DNA of 64,000 bases, taken from the sequence record NC_054903.1; one strand, 5' to 3'. Origin of the DNA: Enterobacteria phage GiZh. How positions within the stretch are numbered: the first letter of the stretch is position 1; every line of letters begins with the position of its first letter. Below, piece by piece: positions 1-43,305 of the stretch. The notes beneath the pieces were generated by a model. The model was not told where the DNA came from, did no database searches, and saw only the letters and a program-made list of their open reading frames with translations. A program made the translations under genes and the position numbers.

Positions 1-2933
1 GTCCAAACGAAGAAGTTATGGTATTTGGTGCGAATAACGGAACAACCCAAACAATTGAGCTTCAGCTTCCAACTAATATTTCTGTTGGTGATACTGTTAA
101 AATTTCCATGAATTACATGAGAAAAGGACAAACAGTTAAAATCAAAGCTGCCGGTGAAGATAAAATTGCTTCTTCAGTTCAATTACTGCAATTCCCAAAA
201 CGCTCAGAATATCCGCCTGAAGCTGAATGGGTTACAGTCCAAGAATTAGTTTTTAACGGTGAAACTAATTATGTTCCAGTTTTGCAACTTGCTTACATAG
301 AAGATTCTGATGGAAAATATTGGGTTGTACAGCAAAACGTTCCAACCGTAGAAAGAGTAGACTCTTTAAATGATTCTACTAGAGCAAGATTAGGCGTAAT
401 TGCTTTAGCTACACAAGCTCAAGCTAATGTCGATTTAGAAAATTCTCCACAAAAAGAATTAGCAATTACTCCAGAAACATTAGCTAACCGTACTGCTACT
501 GAAACTCGTAGAGGTATTGCAAGAATAGCAACTACTGCTCAAGTGAATCAGAACACCACATTCTCTTTTGCTGATGATATTATCATCACTCCTAAAAAGC
601 TGAATGAAAGAACTGCTACAGAAACTCGCAGAGGTGTCGCAGAAATTGCTACGCAGCAAGAAACTAATACAGGTACTGATGATACTACAATCATTACTCC
701 TAAAAAGCTTCAAGCTCGTCAAGGTTCTGAATCATTATCTGGTATTGTAACTTTTGTATCTACTGCAGGAGCTACTCCAGCTTCTAGTCGTGAATTAAAT
801 GGTACAAATGTTTATAATAAAAACACTAATAATTTAGTTGTTTCGCCTAAAGCTCTGGATCAGTATAAAGCTACTCCAACACAACAAGGTGCAGTAATTT
901 TAGCAGTTGAAAGTGAAGTAATTGCTGGAAAAAGTCAAGAAGGATGGGCAAATGCTGTTGTAACGCCAGAAACGTTACATAAAAAGACATCAACTGATGG
1001 AAGAATTGGTTTAATTGAAATTGCTACACAAAGTGAAGTTAATACAGGAACTGATTATACTCGTGCAGTCACTCCTAAAACTTTAAATGACCGTAAAGCA
1101 ACTGAAAGTTTAAGTGGTATAGCTGAAATTGCTACACAAGTTGAATTCGACGCAGGCGTCGACGATACTCGTATCTCTACACCATTAAAAATTAAAACTA
1201 GATTTAATAGTACTGATCGTACTTCTGTTGTTGCTCTATCTGGATTAGTTGAATCAGGAACTCTCTGGGACCATTATACCCTTAATATTCTTGAAGCAAA
1301 TGAGACGCAACGTGGTACACTTCGTGTAGCTACACAAGTTGAAGCTGCTGCAGGAACATTAGATAATGTTTTAATAACTCCTAAAAAGCTTTTAGGTACT
1401 AAATCTACCGAATCGCAAGAAGGTGTTATTAAAGTTGCAACTCAAGCTGAAACCGTAGCTGGAACATCAGCAAATACTGCTGTATCTCCAAAAAATTTAA
1501 AATGGATTGTGCAGAGTGAACCTACCTGGGCAGCTACTACTGCAATAAGAGGTTTTGTTAAAACTTCATCTGGTTCAATTACATTCGTTGGTAATGATAC
1601 AGTCGGTTCTACCCAAGATTTAGAACTGTATGAGAAAAATAGCTATGCGGTATCACCGTATGAATTAAACCGTGTATTAGCAAATTATTTGCCATTAAAA
1701 GCAAAAGCTGCTGATACAAATTTATTGGATGGTCTAGATTCATCTCAGTTCATTCGTAGGGATATCGCACAGACGGTTAATGGTTCACTAACCTTAACAC
1801 AACAAACGAATCTGAGTGCCCCTCTTGTATCATCTAGTACTGCTACGTTTGGTGGTTCAGTTTCGGCAAATAGTACATTAACTATTTCTAATACTGGAAC
1901 GGTAACTCGTCTGATTTTTGAGAAAGGACCTCAAACTGGAACTAACCCAGCGCAGACGATGACTATTAGAGTTTGGGGAAATCAGTTTGGTGGCGGATCA
2001 GATACAACACGTTCTACTGTATTTGAAGTTGGTGATGAAACATCTAATCACTTTTATTCTCAACGTAATAAAGCTGGTAATATTACGTTTAGCATTAATG
2101 GTACTGTGATGCCAATAAATGTTAACGCTTCCGGTTCATTGAATGCGAATGGCGTAGCAACATTTGGTAGTTCAGTTACAGCCAATGGTGAATTCATTAG
2201 CAAGTCTGCAAATGCTTTCAGAGCAATAAACGGTGATTATGGATTCTTTATCAGGAATGATGGCGGCAGCACATATTTTATGCTTACTGCATCGGGTGAT
2301 CAGACTGGCGGATTTAATGGATTACGTCCTTTAGCTATTAATAATGCATCTGGTCAAGTAACTATTGGTGAAAGCTTAATCATTGCCAAAGGTGCTACTA
2401 TAAATTCAGGTGGTTTAACTGTTAACTCGAGAATTCGTTCTCAGGGCACTAAAACTTCTGACTTATATACCCGTGCGCCAACATCTGATACTGTAGGATT
2501 CTGGTCAATCGATATTAATGATTCAGCTACTTATAACCAATTCCCGGGTTATTTTAAAATGGTTGAAAAAACTAATGAAGTGACTGGACTTCCATACTTA
2601 GAACGTGGCGAAGAAGTTAAATCTCCTGGTACATTGACTCAGTTTGGTAACACACTTGATTCGCTTTACCAAGATTGGATTACTTATCCAACGACTCCAG
2701 AAGCACGTACCACTCGCTGGACACGTACATGGCAGAAAACCAAAAATTCTTGGTCGAGTTTTGTTCAGGTATTTGATGGAGGTAACCCTCCTCAGCCGTC
2801 TGATATCGGTGCTTTGCCATCTGATAATGCTACAATGGGGAATCTTACTATTCGTGATTTCTTACGAATTGGTAATGTTCGCATTATTCCTGACCCAGTG
2901 AATAAATCTGTTAAATTTGAATGGATTGAATAA
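1..2933 (+). CDS. 34: long tail fibre proximal subunit gp34, C-terminal ~970 aa (5' end upstream of window)
   Basis: ORF 18..2933 stays open back to window start; repeated ~40-aa motifs (TPKKL..ATQ..); sits directly upstream of 35-36-37-38-t as in T4. Confidence 0.85.
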   Translation, partial: PNEEVMVFGANNGTTQTIELQLPTNISVGDTVKISMNYMRKGQTVKIKAAGEDKIASSVQLLQFPKRSEYPPEAEWVTVQELVFNGETNYVPVLQLAYIEDSDGKYWVVQQNVPTVERVDSLNDSTRARLGVIALATQAQANVDLENSPQKELAITPETLANRTATETRRGIARIATTAQVNQNTTFSFADDIIITPKKLNERTATETRRGVAEIATQQETNTGTDDTTIITPKKLQARQGSESLSGIVTFVSTAGATPASSRELNGTNVYNKNTNNLVVSPKALDQYKATPTQQGAVILAVESEVIAGKSQEGWANAVVTPETLHKKTSTDGRIGLIEIATQSEVNTGTDYTRAVTPKTLNDRKATESLSGIAEIATQVEFDAGVDDTRISTPLKIKTRFNSTDRTSVVALSGLVESGTLWDHYTLNILEANETQRGTLRVATQVEAAAGTLDNVLITPKKLLGTKSTESQEGVIKVATQAETVAGTSANTAVSPKNLKWIVQSEPTWAATTAIRGFVKTSSGSITFVGNDTVGSTQDLELYEKNSYAVSPYELNRVLANYLPLKAKAADTNLLDGLDSSQFIRRDIAQTVNGSLTLTQQTNLSAPLVSSSTATFGGSVSANSTLTISNTGTVTRLIFEKGPQTGTNPAQTMTIRVWGNQFGGGSDTTRSTVFEVGDETSNHFYSQRNKAGNITFSINGTVMPINVNASGSLNANGVATFGSSVTANGEFISKSANAFRAINGDYGFFIRNDGGSTYFMLTASGDQTGGFNGLRPLAINNASGQVTIGESLIIAKGATINSGGLTVNSRIRSQGTKTSDLYTRAPTSDTVGFWSIDINDSATYNQFPGYFKMVEKTNEVTGLPYLERGEEVKSPGTLTQFGNTLDSLYQDWITYPTTPEARTTRWTRTWQKTKNSWSSFVQVFDGGNPPQPSDIGALPSDNATMGNLTIRDFLRIGNVRIIPDPVNKSVKFEWIE

Positions 2934-12125: not shown

Positions 12126-12275
12126 TTACTGCATGACAGTTATCACAGTCATGATAACACGTTGAATTCCGAACGCAAGAAGACCTCCTGCTATGGCTGG
12201 AACAACGCCTAAACCCGCCAGTAAAATGCTACCAGATACTAATGCAGCGCTTGTAATACCAATGAATGGACTCAT
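12126..12275 (-). CDS. small hydrophobic membrane peptide (49 aa)
   Basis: ATG overlaps gene 52 stop (ATGA); below ORF-track cut-off. Confidence 0.4.
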   Translation of the reverse strand: MSPFIGITSAALVSGSILLAGLGVVPAIAGGLLAFGIQRVIMTVITVMQ

Positions 12276-13600
12276 TTGATTTCCTCTAAATCTTTGGTGT
12301 ATTCGGTAACTACATCAGTAGTTTTCCAATATTCGTTTTCTTCTTTTTTAGCTTTAGCTTCTTCAGCAAGTTTCTTTGCTTCATCGGAAGTCATATGAAA
12401 AATATTCATTCCAACTAGTTTATCAACATAAGAAGAATACATATCGATTTTCGAAAGTTCTTCGGTCAGTTCTTTACGAGTTTTACCCTGTACAACAATT
12501 TCACCTGAAATTACTTTCTTAATGAAATGTGCCTTGGCAAAGGCTAAACGAAAAGCTGACTCAGTTTCTTTGATTTTGTTATCAATTCGTTTTTGGACAT
12601 AAGTTTTACGAACTTCAACAAAGTCTTTAATTAAATCGACTACGTTATCGTAAACTTGTAGTTTTCCTTTCTCATTAATAACCGTAATATTCTGAGAACG
12701 ACGCTCAATCAACCCAAAGTCTTTCATAATTTTTGCATGGCGTTCTTCTTCATTATCGCTCAAAGAATATTCTTTACGGAATTTAACTTTAAAGCCAAAA
12801 CCATGCTCACCACAAGCATCATCCCATGTAATGAAGCCTTTATCTTCAAGTGGGTCTAAGATTTTACTCACATAAGTTTCACGATCATACTTATACGGAA
12901 TCTCAGTGATATGCATTTGAGTTCGTGAAGTAAACTTATATGTTCCACGAATTTCATATTGCCCATCAATTTCAACGACTTCACCACGAAATTCTGGGAA
13001 TTCTACCTTCGGTTTAGTTACTTTCTTTCCTTGAAGAGCTTGCAGTACAGCTTTCTTAACAGAAGAAACACTATGAGGAAGAATGTAAGTTGCATAACCA
13101 GTTGCAATACCGGAAACGCCATTAAGAAGAACAGTAGGAATAATAGGCAAATAGAAAGCAGGCGGAATGTGTTCTTTATCTTGATGTACCGGAGCATATT
13201 CAGTATCTTTATATACGTTATAGAAATTTTTACTTACACGAGCAAAAATATAACGACTTGCTGCTGCTTTTTGGACGGTACGAGAACCAAAGTTTCCTTG
13301 ACCATCTAACAGAGGAAAATTATTATTCCAAGTGTTAGCCATCAAAGCACCTGCGTCTTGCGCAGAGTTTTCACCATGATGATATCCAAGGTCCGCTACA
13401 CCACCTGCAATAGAAGCGAGTTTGTGAAATTTATCTTTATTTCCTCGTGCCAAATCAAGAGCTCGAGCAATAACAAATCGTTGAACTGGCTTAAATCCGT
13501 CAATCATGTTTGGGATAGCACGATTTTCAACCGTGTACATAGCATAAGCCAATGCTTCATTATCAATGATACTTTTTAAATCGCGATTATTCAGTTGCAT
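12272..13600 (-). CDS. 52: DNA topoisomerase II medium subunit gp52
   Basis: 442 aa, same as T4 gp52; type II topoisomerase A-subunit-like sequence. Confidence 0.9.
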   Translation of the reverse strand: MQLNNRDLKSIIDNEALAYAMYTVENRAIPNMIDGFKPVQRFVIARALDLARGNKDKFHKLASIAGGVADLGYHHGENSAQDAGALMANTWNNNFPLLDGQGNFGSRTVQKAAASRYIFARVSKNFYNVYKDTEYAPVHQDKEHIPPAFYLPIIPTVLLNGVSGIATGYATYILPHSVSSVKKAVLQALQGKKVTKPKVEFPEFRGEVVEIDGQYEIRGTYKFTSRTQMHITEIPYKYDRETYVSKILDPLEDKGFITWDDACGEHGFGFKVKFRKEYSLSDNEEERHAKIMKDFGLIERRSQNITVINEKGKLQVYDNVVDLIKDFVEVRKTYVQKRIDNKIKETESAFRLAFAKAHFIKKVISGEIVVQGKTRKELTEELSKIDMYSSYVDKLVGMNIFHMTSDEAKKLAEEAKAKKEENEYWKTTDVVTEYTKDLEEIK

Positions 13601-13604
13601 AAAT

Positions 13605-13745
13605 TTACCATACTAGTGAATGTAGTGCCATAATAACATCAGAAATGAAAAGCACGACTTGAATTAATCCGAACATTACTCCATAATATAGTGCTACTAA
13701 TAAAGTAGCAAGGGCTAATGAATAGCCCAAGATTTTCTTAATCAT
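13605..13745 (-). CDS. small hydrophobic peptide (46 aa)
   Basis: ATG/stop coupling with neighbours; resembles T4 small membrane ORFs (ac/52.1 region). Confidence 0.3.
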   Translation of the reverse strand: MIKKILGYSLALATLLVALYYGVMFGLIQVVLFISDVIMALHSLVW

Positions 13746-13896
13746 TAGTAGATAACAACACAAATGTTAAATATGCACACATACCCTGGGCTAAAGCTTG
13801 TGAAAACACACTGCTAGCATCGATACAGATAGTTAAAACACATGCTACTATCCAACAAATAAATGAAATAACTCCTAATAATTTTGCGATATTCAT
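13738..13896 (-). CDS. small hydrophobic Cys-containing peptide (52 aa)
   Basis: RBS GAGGA upstream; membrane-like. Confidence 0.35.
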   Translation of the reverse strand: MNIAKLLGVISFICWIVACVLTICIDASSVFSQALAQGMCAYLTFVLLSTND

Positions 13897-13983
13897 ATTT
13901 TCCTCACTGGCGTCCGAAGACGCCTTTAGTTTTAAGATTGTTACGATAAAACTGCATCACATGTTCGTTGTGGAAATTACTCA

Positions 13984-14427
13984 TTAATATGCCTGCAAAA
14001 CGAATTTAAAGTTATCAGCCAACATACGGTTCATTTCTTCAAGTGTTTGATACTCAGAATGATGATTACGAGTAAACGCCAAAGCTAACTGACCTTTACC
14101 AAATCCTGTCGTCAGAGGTTTCATCTTAGAAGCAGGCAGATAAAATACTGTGTATGGAACATTGTTATTTGCAATAGTACGCGCAAGTTGAGACCGGCGT
14201 TGACGAATATGACTTAGAACTGCGCTGAATCCTTGCTTAGAACGCTGATTACCCACATAAAATCGTGCGGATACGCATGAACCATCGAATTCATTTACTA
14301 AAAAGTAAAATCCAGGTTTAGATAAAATATCTTTATGCGGAGTTCCCAAAAACCACTCACCGCCCTTGATTGTACCAATAACAGTAGCGCCTGCGTTGTT
14401 CAGATCAGTAACAGCCATATATTTCAT
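13984..14427 (-). CDS. ndd: nucleoid disruption protein Ndd
   Basis: sequence recognised from [19 protein letters not shown]..; RBS GAGGAAA; ORF-track start 14475 probably too long. Confidence 0.8.
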
Positions 14428-14487
14428 TTTAATTTCCTCTAAATTATTTTCTACTCCAAGGCCGCATGAATACATACGGCCGATAAA

Positions 14488-14703
14488 TTAATCGTCGCAG
14501 TCGACGCTCAATTCCCAAAACTCTTCTACAGTATAAGTTTCAGTATCATTTTCAATACAGAAACGTTCATTACTATTATTTGCTAAAGTAGCATTAACTG
14601 TCGGTTTCTCGCTAGTGCTCTTAAGAGGTGAAATACGAATTAACTGATCACCATTATCTAAACAGAAAATTTCACCAACTTTTACATCTTTAAAACTTTT
14701 CAT
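14488..14703 (-). CDS. hypothetical protein (71 aa)
   Basis: ORF. Confidence 0.5.
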   Translation of the reverse strand: MKSFKDVKVGEIFCLDNGDQLIRISPLKSTSEKPTVNATLANNSNERFCIENDTETYTVEEFWELSVDCDD

Positions 14704-14818
14704 AATTCACCTCAAGGAGTATAAAATCCAAATGCAGTTGTTGACCATCCCATCCAATATGGGAAATTTGCACCAATGTAAAACATGAGAATATAAAACC
14801 AACCACTCAGCAAATTCA

Positions 14819-15037
14819 TCATTTTACACCATTCCAAATTGTTTCAACCACAGATTTTAAACCATTTTGATGAATATCCATTCCGACTACCGCCATCAAA
14901 TAGATTCCAACTACAACTGAACCTAAGGCAAAAATCAGCATGAAAATGAATAAAGCCGGAAAAATATTATCGAAAAACCATTCAATAAATGTAAAAGCAC
15001 TACGTTTACGCTTCATATTTTCCTCACATAAATCCAA
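14819..15037 (-). CDS. hypothetical membrane protein (72 aa)
   Basis: hydrophobic segment. Confidence 0.45.
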   Translation of the reverse strand: MDLCEENMKRKRSAFTFIEWFFDNIFPALFIFMLIFALGSVVVGIYLMAVVGMDIHQNGLKSVVETIWNGVK

Positions 15038-15137
15038 AATAAGCGTTTAATACATCAATCATTAAAACGATTGGGAATATACTCAAAACTACTAGTATTA
15101 TAACTACATTCCATATAGCTTTAATAATCTTTTTCAT
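15024..15137 (-). CDS. small membrane peptide (37 aa)
   Basis: ATG with GGAGGAA RBS just downstream of an early-promoter cassette; ORF-track 69-aa version would overlap the promoter. Confidence 0.3.
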   Translation of the reverse strand: MKKIIKAIWNVVIILVVLSIFPIVLMIDVLNAYFGFM

Positions 15138-15159
15138 TTTCTGTTCCTCCGTAGTTGAT

Positions 15160-15215
15160 AGGGTAATAGTACCACGGAAGAACAGTCTTGTAAACAACTT
15201 TTTAAAAATATTCGT
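15160..15215 (-). promoter_or_regulatory. early promoter cassette (GTTTAC ... TACTAT)
   Basis: repeat of the motA-type promoter sequence. Confidence 0.5.
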
Positions 15216-15379
15216 AATAAATGTGAATACCAACTACTACCGCTGAAACCTGTGCAACCCACCACGCACAAGCAATAAGTACAGAATTCAAAATTTTCAT
15301 AATAACCTCATCACAAAAGTAAATGTTAAACAAATTACTGGAATACTAATTAACCAAACAAAACACCACCATAATGAAC

Positions 15380-15643
15380 TCATAGCTCAATCTCAGCGAT
15401 TTTCATTTCATTACTATTAATAGCCTCTTTAAGACTATCTGAAAGAATTACATTCCAGTGGTCATTCATATGACCATTAACTAAGCGTGTAATTTCTTCA
15501 GGAGTTGAAAAATAAGGCTGATCAGACTCCCAATGCGATAATCCTAAGCGAGTATAAATCATGCCTTCATCATCGCTCGAATATTCAACTGACACAAACT
15601 CATCAGTTATTTTATGCTTAGCATAATAAAATTTAAATTTCAT
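15380..15643 (-). CDS. hypothetical protein (87 aa)
   Basis: start set at ATG with GGAGAG RBS downstream of promoter cassette. Confidence 0.5.
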   Translation of the reverse strand: MKFKFYYAKHKITDEFVSVEYSSDDEGMIYTRLGLSHWESDQPYFSTPEEITRLVNGHMNDHWNVILSDSLKEAINSNEMKIAEIEL

Positions 15644-15669
15644 TTTACTCTCCAAATCCGTATCAGTTG

Positions 15670-15725
15670 ATAGTTGTATAGTACCACGGTCCTTGTGGTA
15701 TGTAAACCGTTTTGTGAAAATTTTT
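15670..15725 (-). promoter_or_regulatory. early promoter cassette (GTTTAC ... TACTAT)
   Basis: near-identical to the motA promoter region. Confidence 0.5.
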
Positions 15726-16281
15726 AAATGGAAAGATACCATCCGTTGTAGTTGCTTTTTCTTACAACCTTACGAAGGTCTTCTCTGTCACCGATGAACT
15801 TCGGAGTGTACTGGATGACACCTGGATGAATTTCTTTAGTGTTGAATATAATTATACAGTCGGCGACTTGATGATTTAGAATGGGCCCTAGATTTATTCC
15901 AGAACCATATGGATACTCTCCGCTGCATCCTGTTGTTACCGAAATCCAACGTGAGTCAGTTTGATGTGTCTTAACTTCTACACGAAGCCCACAGTATTTT
16001 GGATGCGCCAATACATCCCATGCGTATGTATACGGGTCATTAACATCCTCTTGGCCTTTATTAACATACCCGCTTAGCCAATCTGCTACAAAAAATTCTG
16101 CGTACACAGCGATACGGCATCTTTCGATAACTTCTGCCTTATCCTGATTTGGATTTTGTTTTAAAGAGTATCTTGCTGTATCAGCAATTTTGACCTTCAT
16201 TTCACTAGTCAAGTCACTGTTCGATAGGGTAAATGTCGGAATCTGAAATAGTCTCTGTAAACCCGGATTCGTTTTCTGCAT
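15724..16281 (-). CDS. denB: endonuclease IV DenB
   Basis: 185 aa, same as T4 DenB; position next to rIIB. Confidence 0.8.
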   Translation of the reverse strand: MQKTNPGLQRLFQIPTFTLSNSDLTSEMKVKIADTARYSLKQNPNQDKAEVIERCRIAVYAEFFVADWLSGYVNKGQEDVNDPYTYAWDVLAHPKYCGLRVEVKTHQTDSRWISVTTGCSGEYPYGSGINLGPILNHQVADCIIIFNTKEIHPGVIQYTPKFIGDREDLRKVVRKSNYNGWYLSI

Positions 16282-16344: not shown

Positions 16345-16366
16345 CAAAAGGGCCGAAGCCCCTTAT
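16345..16366 (-). terminator. hairpin (GGGGCUUCGGCCC) + U-run
   Basis: stem-loop with UUCG loop and ttttgtttt. Confidence 0.5.
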
Positions 16367-43244: not shown

Positions 43245-43305
43245 ATAGTTGTATAGTACCATGGAAGAACAGTCTTGTAAACAGTTTTGTGAAAATTTTT
43301 TAGGG
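43245..43305 (-). promoter_or_regulatory. early promoter cassette
   Basis: GTTTAC at 43277-43282 (- strand) and GGTACTATAC; conserved leader. Confidence 0.55.

Follow-up and report, generated by a model that had tools for sequence, protein, structure and literature searches.

In phage T4 the interval between gene 52 and denB (T4p265–T4p275; NC_000866, 165209..166996) is a long-annotated, non-essential early block that is already known, and ordinary, to a T4 specialist. We analysed the corresponding interval of Enterobacteria phage GiZh (NC_054903.1) within a window of 64,000 nucleotides (nt), the whole stretch of DNA to which the positions given below refer. A first-pass annotation of this window had reported a string of at least six tiny open reading frames (ORFs) between gene 52 and denB, and had proposed that they encode membrane micro-proteins related to T4 ac, stp and the ndd.x genes. 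The GiZh block has the order, strand, spacing, overlaps and two early promoters of the T4 block, and the best explanation of the locus as a whole, to which we assign a probability of roughly 0.85, is that it represents the T4 early accessory gene block running from gene 52 to denB.

The T4 saΔ9 deletion takes out 52.1, ac, stp, ndd, ndd.1–ndd.6 and denB, and the resulting phage is viable, yields ∼50% as much as the wild type and no longer stimulates the synthesis of phospholipids, especially that of phosphatidylglycerol, as T4 otherwise does; the authors of the review describing this deletion state that the products of ndd.1–ndd.6 are unknown (PMC6071114). In a T4 time course, 52.1, ac, stp and ndd.2–ndd.6 all fell into the early class of transcripts (PMC9697503, Table S2). 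When T4 genes were knocked down by CRISPRi-ART, 52.1, ac, stp, ndd, ndd.1–ndd.6 and denB were all scored 'Not Fit', and gene 52 was scored 'Fit' (PMC11879866, supplement); the main texts of the HIDEN-SEQ and CRISPRi-ART studies make no mention of these micro-genes. Taken together, the knockdown and saΔ9 results show that the block is dispensable in laboratory hosts. The block therefore holds a compact set of conserved, early-expressed and dispensable predicted membrane micro-proteins in the best-studied phage, among which, after 30 years, a function has been described for Ac and Stp only.

Ac was named for its effect on acridine sensitivity, and knockouts, indels and the G38R change in ac all confer resistance to acriflavine, while plasmid-expressed ac alone sensitises E. 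coli to this drug by ∼3 logs; a variant of Ac with one additional Thr (PP01 type), which is the form carried by GiZh, is phenotypically normal (bioRxiv 10.1101/2025.06.30.662393). The same preprint proposed that Ac blocks AcrAB-TolC, and the proposal is repeated in PMC13250531. According to the T4 literature, Ac by itself causes acridines to build up in E. coli or not to be expelled. EcoprrI, a restriction enzyme of type Ic, is inhibited by T4 Stp, and this inhibition activates the otherwise latent anticodon nuclease PrrC (PMC1484252). Ac and Stp provide the only product evidence for the micro-proteins in T4, that for Stp coming from the literature and that for Ac being genetic and expression-based. 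A host counterpart of Ac is found in E. coli AcrZ, a small inner-membrane regulator of 49 residues that binds AcrB and is a host-encoded positive modulator. Ac and AcrZ are alike in size, in having a single transmembrane (TM) helix and in their proposed AcrAB-TolC target, whereas Ac is phage-encoded and is proposed to be inhibitory; the likeness is a functional analogy only, and no sequence relationship is claimed.

In GiZh, as in the rest of the gene 52-to-rIIB region, all genes of the block lie on the minus strand and are read leftward. Gene 52 (12272..13600) flanks the micro-ORF string on its 3' side, and denB (15724..16281), then denB.1 and rIIB, lie on the other side. The genes occur in the same order and placement as in the annotated genomes of T4, RB14 and Kha5h, namely 52.1, ac, stp, ndd, ndd.1, ndd.2, ndd.2a (or ndd.3), ndd.4, ndd.5 and ndd.6, and the GiZh micro-proteins are identical to their T4 counterparts or nearly so, at most 1–2 residues apart. 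The 2.5 kb around the string is 99.2% identical in nucleotide sequence to Enterobacteria phage Kha5h, and 572 phage records are near matches, nearly all of them Tequatrovirus of Escherichia, Shigella and Yersinia. The six reported ORFs were all present where the first-pass annotation had placed them, the two that it had put near 15235..15380 being ndd.5 and ndd.6, and the correspondence that it had suggested with T4 ac, stp and ndd.x was upheld by synteny with T4, RB14 and Kha5h and by full-length PHROG and Pfam matches. It is almost certain, taking the claims of identity and of coding together, that all six ORFs are real protein-coding genes orthologous to those of T4, and that the same holds for stp and ndd.2a. 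Given this identity with annotated T4 genes, the finding is both correct and ordinary.

Beginning at the gene 52 end, the 52.1 orthologue (13605..13745) encodes a hydrophobic product of 46 residues, counted from its ATG, and between this start and the stop of ac there is an overlap of 8 nt. Residues 1–46 of 46 match Pfam DUF7396 (81.9 bits, cut-off 27), and the protein also matches phrog_3595 (E = 1.2e-25). It adjoins gene 52 on the upstream side and on the same strand, an arrangement common to the window, T4, RB14, RB69, JS98 and VR7. The gene 52 ATG lies 4 nt past the 52.1 stop, without an obvious Shine-Dalgarno sequence (…tatggTAAatttATG; 13600..13625). The ac orthologue (13738..13896; 52 residues), positioned between 52.1 and stp, is preceded by GAGGAAAAT-ATG and matches phrog_2501 (88.6 bits). 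It is the extra-Thr variant (…LLSTND), and this inserted Thr is the sole difference between GiZh Ac and T4 Ac. The critical G38 and the D26-A27 helix break are retained; judged by sequence, GiZh Ac is in these respects the same protein as the one studied in T4 (bioRxiv 10.1101/2025.06.30.662393). The stp orthologue (13904..13984) encodes 26 residues, 26 of which are identical to T4 Stp, and its ATG overlaps the ndd stop (TAATG). It matches the Stp family PF08133 at full length (75.3 bits, cut-off 25) as well as phrog_6763.

The ndd.2 orthologue (14712..14822) encodes an aromatic-rich product of 36 residues, or 35 residues from a second ATG at 14819, with an ATGA overlap between its start and the stop of ndd.2a; because ESh28 has ATA in place of the first ATG, only the second can serve as a start in every genome compared. 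Its match to phrog_4135 is end-to-end (E = 1.7e-24). Next to it lies ndd.2a in its intact form (14819..15016; 65 residues, hydrophobic), preceded by GAGGAAAAT-ATG, with KRKR at the N-terminus, a hydrophobic core at residues 18–45 and an amphipathic C-terminal tail. Residues 6–63 match PF23906 (DUF7248; 71.9 bits, cut-off 27), and the protein matches phrog_2401 (E = 3.4e-30). The ndd.4 orthologue (15024..15137; 37 residues) is preceded by GGAGGAACAGAAA-ATG, carries KK..K at its N-terminus, has a TM core spanning residues 11–29, and matches phrog_3098 end-to-end (E = 5.6e-21). Further along, the ndd.5 orthologue (15202..15300; 32 residues) is preceded by GAGGTTATT-ATG, overlaps the ndd.6 stop with its start (ATGA), and matches phrog_5011 end-to-end (91.6 bits, E = 3.6e-26), while the ndd.6 orthologue (15297..15383; 28 residues) overlaps with its start the stop of an 87-residue ORF (ATGA) and matches phrog_8851 end-to-end (E = 1.6e-17).

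The GiZh block differs from that of T4 in a few places. Whereas ndd.2a is an intact frame of 65 residues in GiZh, T4 carries a 1-nt deletion and has ndd.3 plus a truncated ndd.2a instead. The deletion lies just after the ndd.2a start in both T4 sequences, including the T4D record X75802 (ATGAA-CGTAAACG compared with ATGAAGCGTAAACG), and because of it the ancestral gene of 65 residues is read in T4 as a 26-residue out-of-frame 'ndd.3', which is a PHROG singleton, together with the truncated ndd.2a. The 65-residue form is intact in GiZh and in 8 other Tequatroviruses, and frameshifted in T4 alone; judged from these alignments, T4 'ndd.3' looks like an artefact of a frameshift in the T4 lineage. 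GiZh also carries the 87-residue ORF (orf87) between denB and ndd.6, which in T4 is reduced to 8 codons. T4 lost 79 orf87 codons by an in-frame deletion between ATGAAA repeats, with promoter and ribosome-binding site retained, and the residual ORF (MKIAEIEL*) is unannotated, its stop still overlapping the ndd.6 ATG. The remaining differences are the extra Thr of Ac and a variable segment of ndd that is 15 nt shorter in GiZh.

Conservation was evaluated within the genus in nine Tequatroviruses (Kha5h, RB14, T4, PM133, IME537, Pu-Krd-SF3, ESh28, EC.W13-3 and KK4), and beyond it in RB69 (Mosigvirus), JS98 (Dhakavirus), and SP18 and VR7 (Gaprivervirus). Apart from the T4 frameshift in ndd.2a, the micro-ORFs were intact in 9 of 9 Tequatroviruses and their proteins near-identical, and variable sites clustered at third codon positions. 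Pooled within-genus ratios of non-synonymous (pN) to synonymous (pS) differences were 0.06 for ac, 0.07 for ndd.2, 0.09 for ndd.2a, 0.04 for ndd.5, 0.09 for ndd.6 and 0.31 for 52.1, and 0 for stp, which had zero non-synonymous change. Across genera, 52.1 kept 74–91% identity in RB69, JS98, SP18 and VR7 (pN/pS 0.10–0.24, pS 0.39–0.72), which is on a par with gp52, and its position beside gene 52 was constant; the gp52 control against VR7 (pN/pS 1.07) was discounted, because the alignment was mis-registered by an N-terminal indel. Identity was 80–96% for stp (pN/pS 0.06–0.23), 58–61% for ndd.4 in JS98, SP18 and VR7 (pN/pS 0.30–0.33), and 37–41% for ndd.2a in SP18 and VR7. The ndd.6 product was 44–54% identical in RB69, JS98, SP18 and VR7, with second codon positions changing least and with its hydrophobic helix and W-C…IP-IC motif kept over five genera, a substitution pattern that is as expected for the TM helix predicted from its sequence. 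No match to ndd.5 was found at these four other-genus loci, and its absence beyond Tequatrovirus is to be read for those four loci only. The first-pass annotation had named conservation of the reading frames in relatives as a check, and the frames passed it: all were intact in the nine Tequatroviruses, and those of 52.1, stp, ndd.2a, ndd.4 and ndd.6 were intact in other genera, with mostly synonymous change.

When all phage records were searched with tblastn, 52.1 was found in 811, reaching Klebsiella and Kosakonia phages, stp in 607, ndd.4 in 594, ndd.2 in 517, with Klebsiella phages among them at 44% identity, and ndd.6 in 492. The same search was blank for Ndd.5, which was rejected as an artefact of the low-complexity filter acting on a hydrophobic query of 32 residues, since nine genomes hold identical copies.

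The hydrophobic character reported for most of the ORFs was confirmed, the best 19-residue Kyte-Doolittle window scoring 2.2–3.05 for five of the six and 1.17 for the aromatic-rich ndd.2. In all products but Stp, one uncharged hydrophobic stretch of 19–29 residues dominates, with no mature domain after it, and Lys and Arg gather at the N-terminus in 52.1, ndd.2a and ndd.4. We are reasonably confident, on the strength of these predictions, that the hydrophobic products would be helical, bitopic inner-membrane peptides. Judged from hydrophobicity, the positive-inside pattern and helix predictions, each non-Stp product would form one long hydrophobic alpha-helix, and within minutes of infection the peptides would be inserted into the inner membrane of the host, mostly with the N-terminus in (52.1, ndd.2a and ndd.4). 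The proposal of membrane micro-proteins thus held as far as hydrophobicity and predicted helices are concerned, and failed for Stp, which is hydrophilic and cytosolic and so stands outside the 'hydrophobic micro-protein' class.

Several observations weigh against the view that the block encodes a set of early membrane proteins that act on the host. None of the 52.1, ac, stp and ndd.2–ndd.6 proteins was detected in a time-resolved T4 proteome covering 85% of annotated proteins (PMC9697503), in which Ndd and Ndd.1 were detected (Table S2), so that translation of 52.1, ndd.2, ndd.2a, ndd.4, ndd.5 and ndd.6 is left unproven; the non-detection by mass spectrometry may reflect small size and hydrophobicity. 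No T4 ribosome-profiling or small-protein study was found in our literature search. Ac may act on AcrAB-TolC, an interaction that the preprint puts forward as a hypothesis. The lipid phenotype of saΔ9 is tied by experiment to no individual ndd.x gene, and data from rIIΔDD2 suggest that denB or its neighbours may also contribute to it (PMC6071114). Within the genus, ndd.4 has a pN/pS of 0.64, drawn from only 5 variable sites, and the cross-genus pN/pS of ndd.6 (0.36–1.03 in RB69, JS98, SP18 and VR7) indicates that constraint on this product is loose beyond 'hydrophobic helix'. Single-sequence AlphaFold2 models gave one continuous helix for 52.1 (residues 2–45; predicted local distance difference test score, pLDDT, 94.5) and for ndd.2a (residues 6–64; pLDDT 89.7), but this procedure would yield a helix for nearly any hydrophobic peptide and supports 'helical' only.

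Four other explanations of the locus, or of parts of it, were weighed. The hydrophobic frames might be chance products of intergenic or regulatory DNA that is rich in T, open but untranslated, and it is true that the coding strand is 36% T, which favours hydrophobic codons, and that mass spectrometry found no T4 micro-protein peptides. However, ATG-initiated ORFs of at least 28 residues cover 88% of the minus strand at 13601..15723, whereas on the plus strand they cover 10%, and 500 Markov-1 simulations of matched composition gave 27±11%, with a maximum of 56%; the six hydrophobic ORFs of 28–70 residues (19-residue hydropathy window of at least 2.0), against 0 on the plus strand, were reached in 0 of 1000 composition-matched simulations, which gave 0.34±0.57 (maximum 3). 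In addition, the frames are intact in every relative, substitutions fall at third positions with a pN/pS of 0.04–0.09 for most, several ORFs are conserved across genera despite saturated synonymous sites, and frameshifts and a missense change in ac alter the phenotype. The substitution pattern effectively refutes an origin by chance, which we consider extremely improbable. For some of the smallest ORFs, above all ndd.6 and perhaps 52.1 or ndd.2, the chief alternative is that they serve mainly as translational relays: their translation would pass ribosomes on to the following cistron, or affect the structure or stability of the mRNA, and the peptide itself would have little function. In every case the ndd.6 frame starts within an A/G/T-TGA that it shares with the ORF before it (ATGA, GTGA or TTGA at the junction with the orf87 homologue in RB69, JS98, SP18 and VR7), its stop overlaps the ndd.5 start, its cross-genus pN/pS rises as far as 0.55–1.03, and T4 lost 79 upstream codons yet kept the 8-codon stub that preserves the overlap; 52.1, for its part, stops 4 nt before a gene 52 ATG that has no clear Shine-Dalgarno sequence. 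What makes this role improbable is that the ndd.6 ratio falls to 0.09 within the genus, with helix and motif persisting in five genera, and that the 52.1 protein is conserved while its synonymous sites diverge. Moreover, knockdown at the 52.1 start was 'Not Fit' when that of gene 52 was 'Fit' (PMC11879866, supplement), which indicates that gene 52 expression and fitness are independent of 52.1 translation.

Database labels describe ndd.2, ndd.5 and ndd.6 as 'outer membrane protein' and ndd.2a as 'periplasmic protein', and these names stand in T4 RefSeq, in PHROGs and in many relatives. These names go back to the automated prediction of localisation when the T4 genome was annotated; in the literature searched, no experiment behind them was found. 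A length of 28–65 residues, with a single hydrophobic stretch and no mature domain, is the signature of a bitopic inner-membrane protein and not that of a beta-barrel or secreted one; in ndd.2, ndd.2a, ndd.5 and ndd.6 there is no cleavable signal peptide with a mature domain behind it, be it soluble or a beta-barrel, and ndd.2a, like 52.1, was predicted as a single continuous helix, so that an outer-membrane or periplasmic location is very improbable. Somewhat less remote, but still a minor prospect, is that the products are factors in lysis timing, superinfection exclusion or membrane integrity that work with the rII genes, in the manner of holins, antiholins or Imm, instead of modulating transporters or lipid enzymes of the host. 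Small proteins with a single TM segment, they are encoded next to denB.1, rIIB and rIIA, which protect membrane integrity, and T4 imm and sp share their early expression (PMC9697503). Yet the description of saΔ9 reports neither a lysis nor an exclusion phenotype (PMC6071114), PHROG and Pfam scans show no similarity to the holin, Imm or Sp families, and Ac, the sole characterised member, has a drug-accumulation phenotype.

On the reading that we favour, the products of 52.1, ndd.2, ndd.2a, ndd.4, ndd.5 and ndd.6 would act like Ac, each binding and modulating a particular host inner-membrane complex, and by extrapolation such action would be a conditional, host-specific accessory function. This Ac-like modulation is a tentative proposal, made by analogy, that we hold to be somewhat short of an even chance. 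The stimulation of phosphatidylglycerol synthesis mapped by saΔ9 would be a candidate phenotype for one of the micro-proteins. A more far-reaching reading, which we consider unlikely, is that the uncharacterised micro-proteins are no generic 'membrane filler' but, like Ac, each inhibit or modulate one specific inner-membrane machine of the host, and that one of them (ndd.2, ndd.2a, ndd.4, ndd.5, ndd.6 or 52.1) is the long-sought determinant of the phosphatidylglycerol stimulation mapped by saΔ9. Among them 52.1 stands out by its conservation and its fixed place beside gene 52, and it could tether or regulate the membrane-associated T4 topoisomerase. Roles in host-specific counter-defence, or in the remodelling of the envelope, are plausible for these micro-proteins. 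The role of conserved early micro-proteins is a long-recognised question, and the GiZh window leaves it unchanged.

The first-pass annotation had also credited most of the ORFs with ribosome-binding sites and overlapping stop and start codons. This was accurate as a combined statement, but gene by gene a clear ribosome-binding site is seen in only around half of the micro-ORFs. Strong GAGG or GGAGG Shine-Dalgarno sequences precede ac, ndd.1, ndd.2a, ndd.4 and ndd.5, and those for 52.1, ndd.2, ndd.6 and stp are weak or missing; each of the latter genes starts at or inside the upstream stop codon, which points to translational coupling. Five junctions overlap, by 8 nt at ac/52.1, by 1 nt at ndd/stp, and in an ATGA at ndd.2a/ndd.2, ndd.6/ndd.5 and orf87/ndd.6. 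As the sequence suggests, translation would proceed from polycistronic early mRNAs, with ac, ndd.2a, ndd.4 and ndd.5 served by their strong Shine-Dalgarno sites, and with 52.1, ndd.2, ndd.6 and stp translated by termination-reinitiation at the overlapping stop and start codons.

Two conserved T4-type early promoters, of the sigma-70 type, lie on the minus strand of the block, at 15166..15195 (GTTTACA-N17-TACTAT, with TG upstream of the −10 element) and at 15678..15707 (GTTTACA-N17-TACTAT), and each matches one of the two promoters that the T4D record X75802 annotates. Their mutual identity is ∼76% over 85–95 nt. The consensus GTTTACW-N17-TAYWAT has 12 exact matches in the 64-kb window, all on the minus strand, where 0.08 would be expected (9576, 12041, 15166, 15678, 24672, 25680, 32989, 37029, 43253, 58508, 58953 and 63011). 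The copy at 43253..43282 is one base off the copy at 15166..15195, making it a possible recombination substrate. The promoter at 15678..15707 would drive orf87-ndd.6-ndd.5, and that at 15166..15195 would drive ndd.4-ndd.2a-ndd.2-ndd.1 and then, past a stem-loop, ndd-stp-ac-52.1-52. A CUUCGG-loop hairpin (GGCGUCUUCGGACGCC; 13909..13924, minus strand) falls within the last stp codons (…GVFGRQ*), directly 5' of the ac Shine-Dalgarno sequence, and its RNA fold has an energy of −13.1 kcal/mol in a 56-nt context (z = −2.8). A similar CUUCGG hairpin, with a T-run, is present at 16347..16364, between denB.1 and denB.

The arrangement can be compared with the PeSL (promoter-early stem-loop) cassettes of T4-like phages (PMC4122927). 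Both GiZh promoters fit the PST/T4 consensus TTTACW-N17-TAYWAT, and gene content between the promoters varies among relatives, as in those cassettes; an exchange of ndd.4/ndd.5 between T4 and PST is cited in the same paper. A scan of the promoter flanks reported no clear terminator-like hairpin beside either GiZh early promoter. PeSL-mediated exchange was considered for the loss of orf87 from T4 and rejected, the in-frame deletion between ATGAAA repeats fitting that loss.

Three longer genes give the context of the string. The ndd gene, for the nucleoid disruption protein (13984..14427), encodes 147 residues and is not a micro-ORF. At about codons 44–55 of Ndd, GiZh and Kha5h share a divergent segment, 15 nt shorter than the …LVSKLDGRPFSNPCVSARF… of T4, RB14 and others, and this segment is a local mosaic patch within an otherwise conserved protein. 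Beside it, ndd.1 (14488..14703; phrog_2183) encodes a hydrophilic product of 71 residues. The hydrophilic orf87 (15380..15643), a member of the RB14ncORF269c/RB69ORF270c family that matches phrog_2390 (158 bits), lies between ndd.6 and denB and is not present in T4. At least three strongly divergent allelic forms of orf87 occur within Tequatrovirus (pN 0.17 and pS 0.40 against PM133, IME537 and Pu-Krd-SF3), next to the nearly invariant ndd.6 and denB; it is a mosaic hot spot, bounded by an early promoter.

Homologues of stp also occur outside the T4-like phages. An intact 25-residue Stp homologue is encoded in Kagunavirus vB_EcoS-Ro145c2YLVW (1494..1571, minus strand), and others are present in K1ind2, Veterinaerplatzvirus T145P1, Bas95 and PH1062, which are unrelated siphophages that mostly leave the gene unannotated. 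Between the siphophage homologue and GiZh stp, pS is 0.90 and pN is 0.06, indicating horizontal movement of this anti-EcoprrI peptide beyond the T4-like phages and strong purifying selection there. In JS98, a second, unannotated stp-like sequence (1227..1298 and 1292..1354), which is 96% identical to T4 Stp residues 2–25, adjoins a partial 52.1 duplicate, in addition to the annotated stp; as far as the sequence allows, this points to local duplication.

Annotation of the block is uneven among relatives, as the first-pass annotation had foreseen in remarking that ORFs of this size escape length filters: many relatives leave stp, 52.1 and ndd.6 unannotated. Among 13 relatives, stp is annotated in 3 (T4, RB14 and JS98), 52.1 in 6 and ndd.6 in 2, and ndd.6 is mostly unannotated in RB69, JS98, SP18 and VR7. 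The Kha5h record lacks annotation of 52.1, stp, ndd.6 and the 87-residue ORF. The first-pass annotation itself gave no strand, and no coordinates for stp, which it named only as a T4 gene, or for ndd.2a, and orf87 fell just outside its interval. For genome scans, the outcome is a correct re-discovery of annotated T4 genes that exposes this unevenness. In the RefSeq record of Kha5h, Ndd.4 is labelled 'naphthalene 1,2-dioxygenase', apparently an error arising from the gene symbol 'ndd', and the same label is found in at least one other record (PP216085.1).

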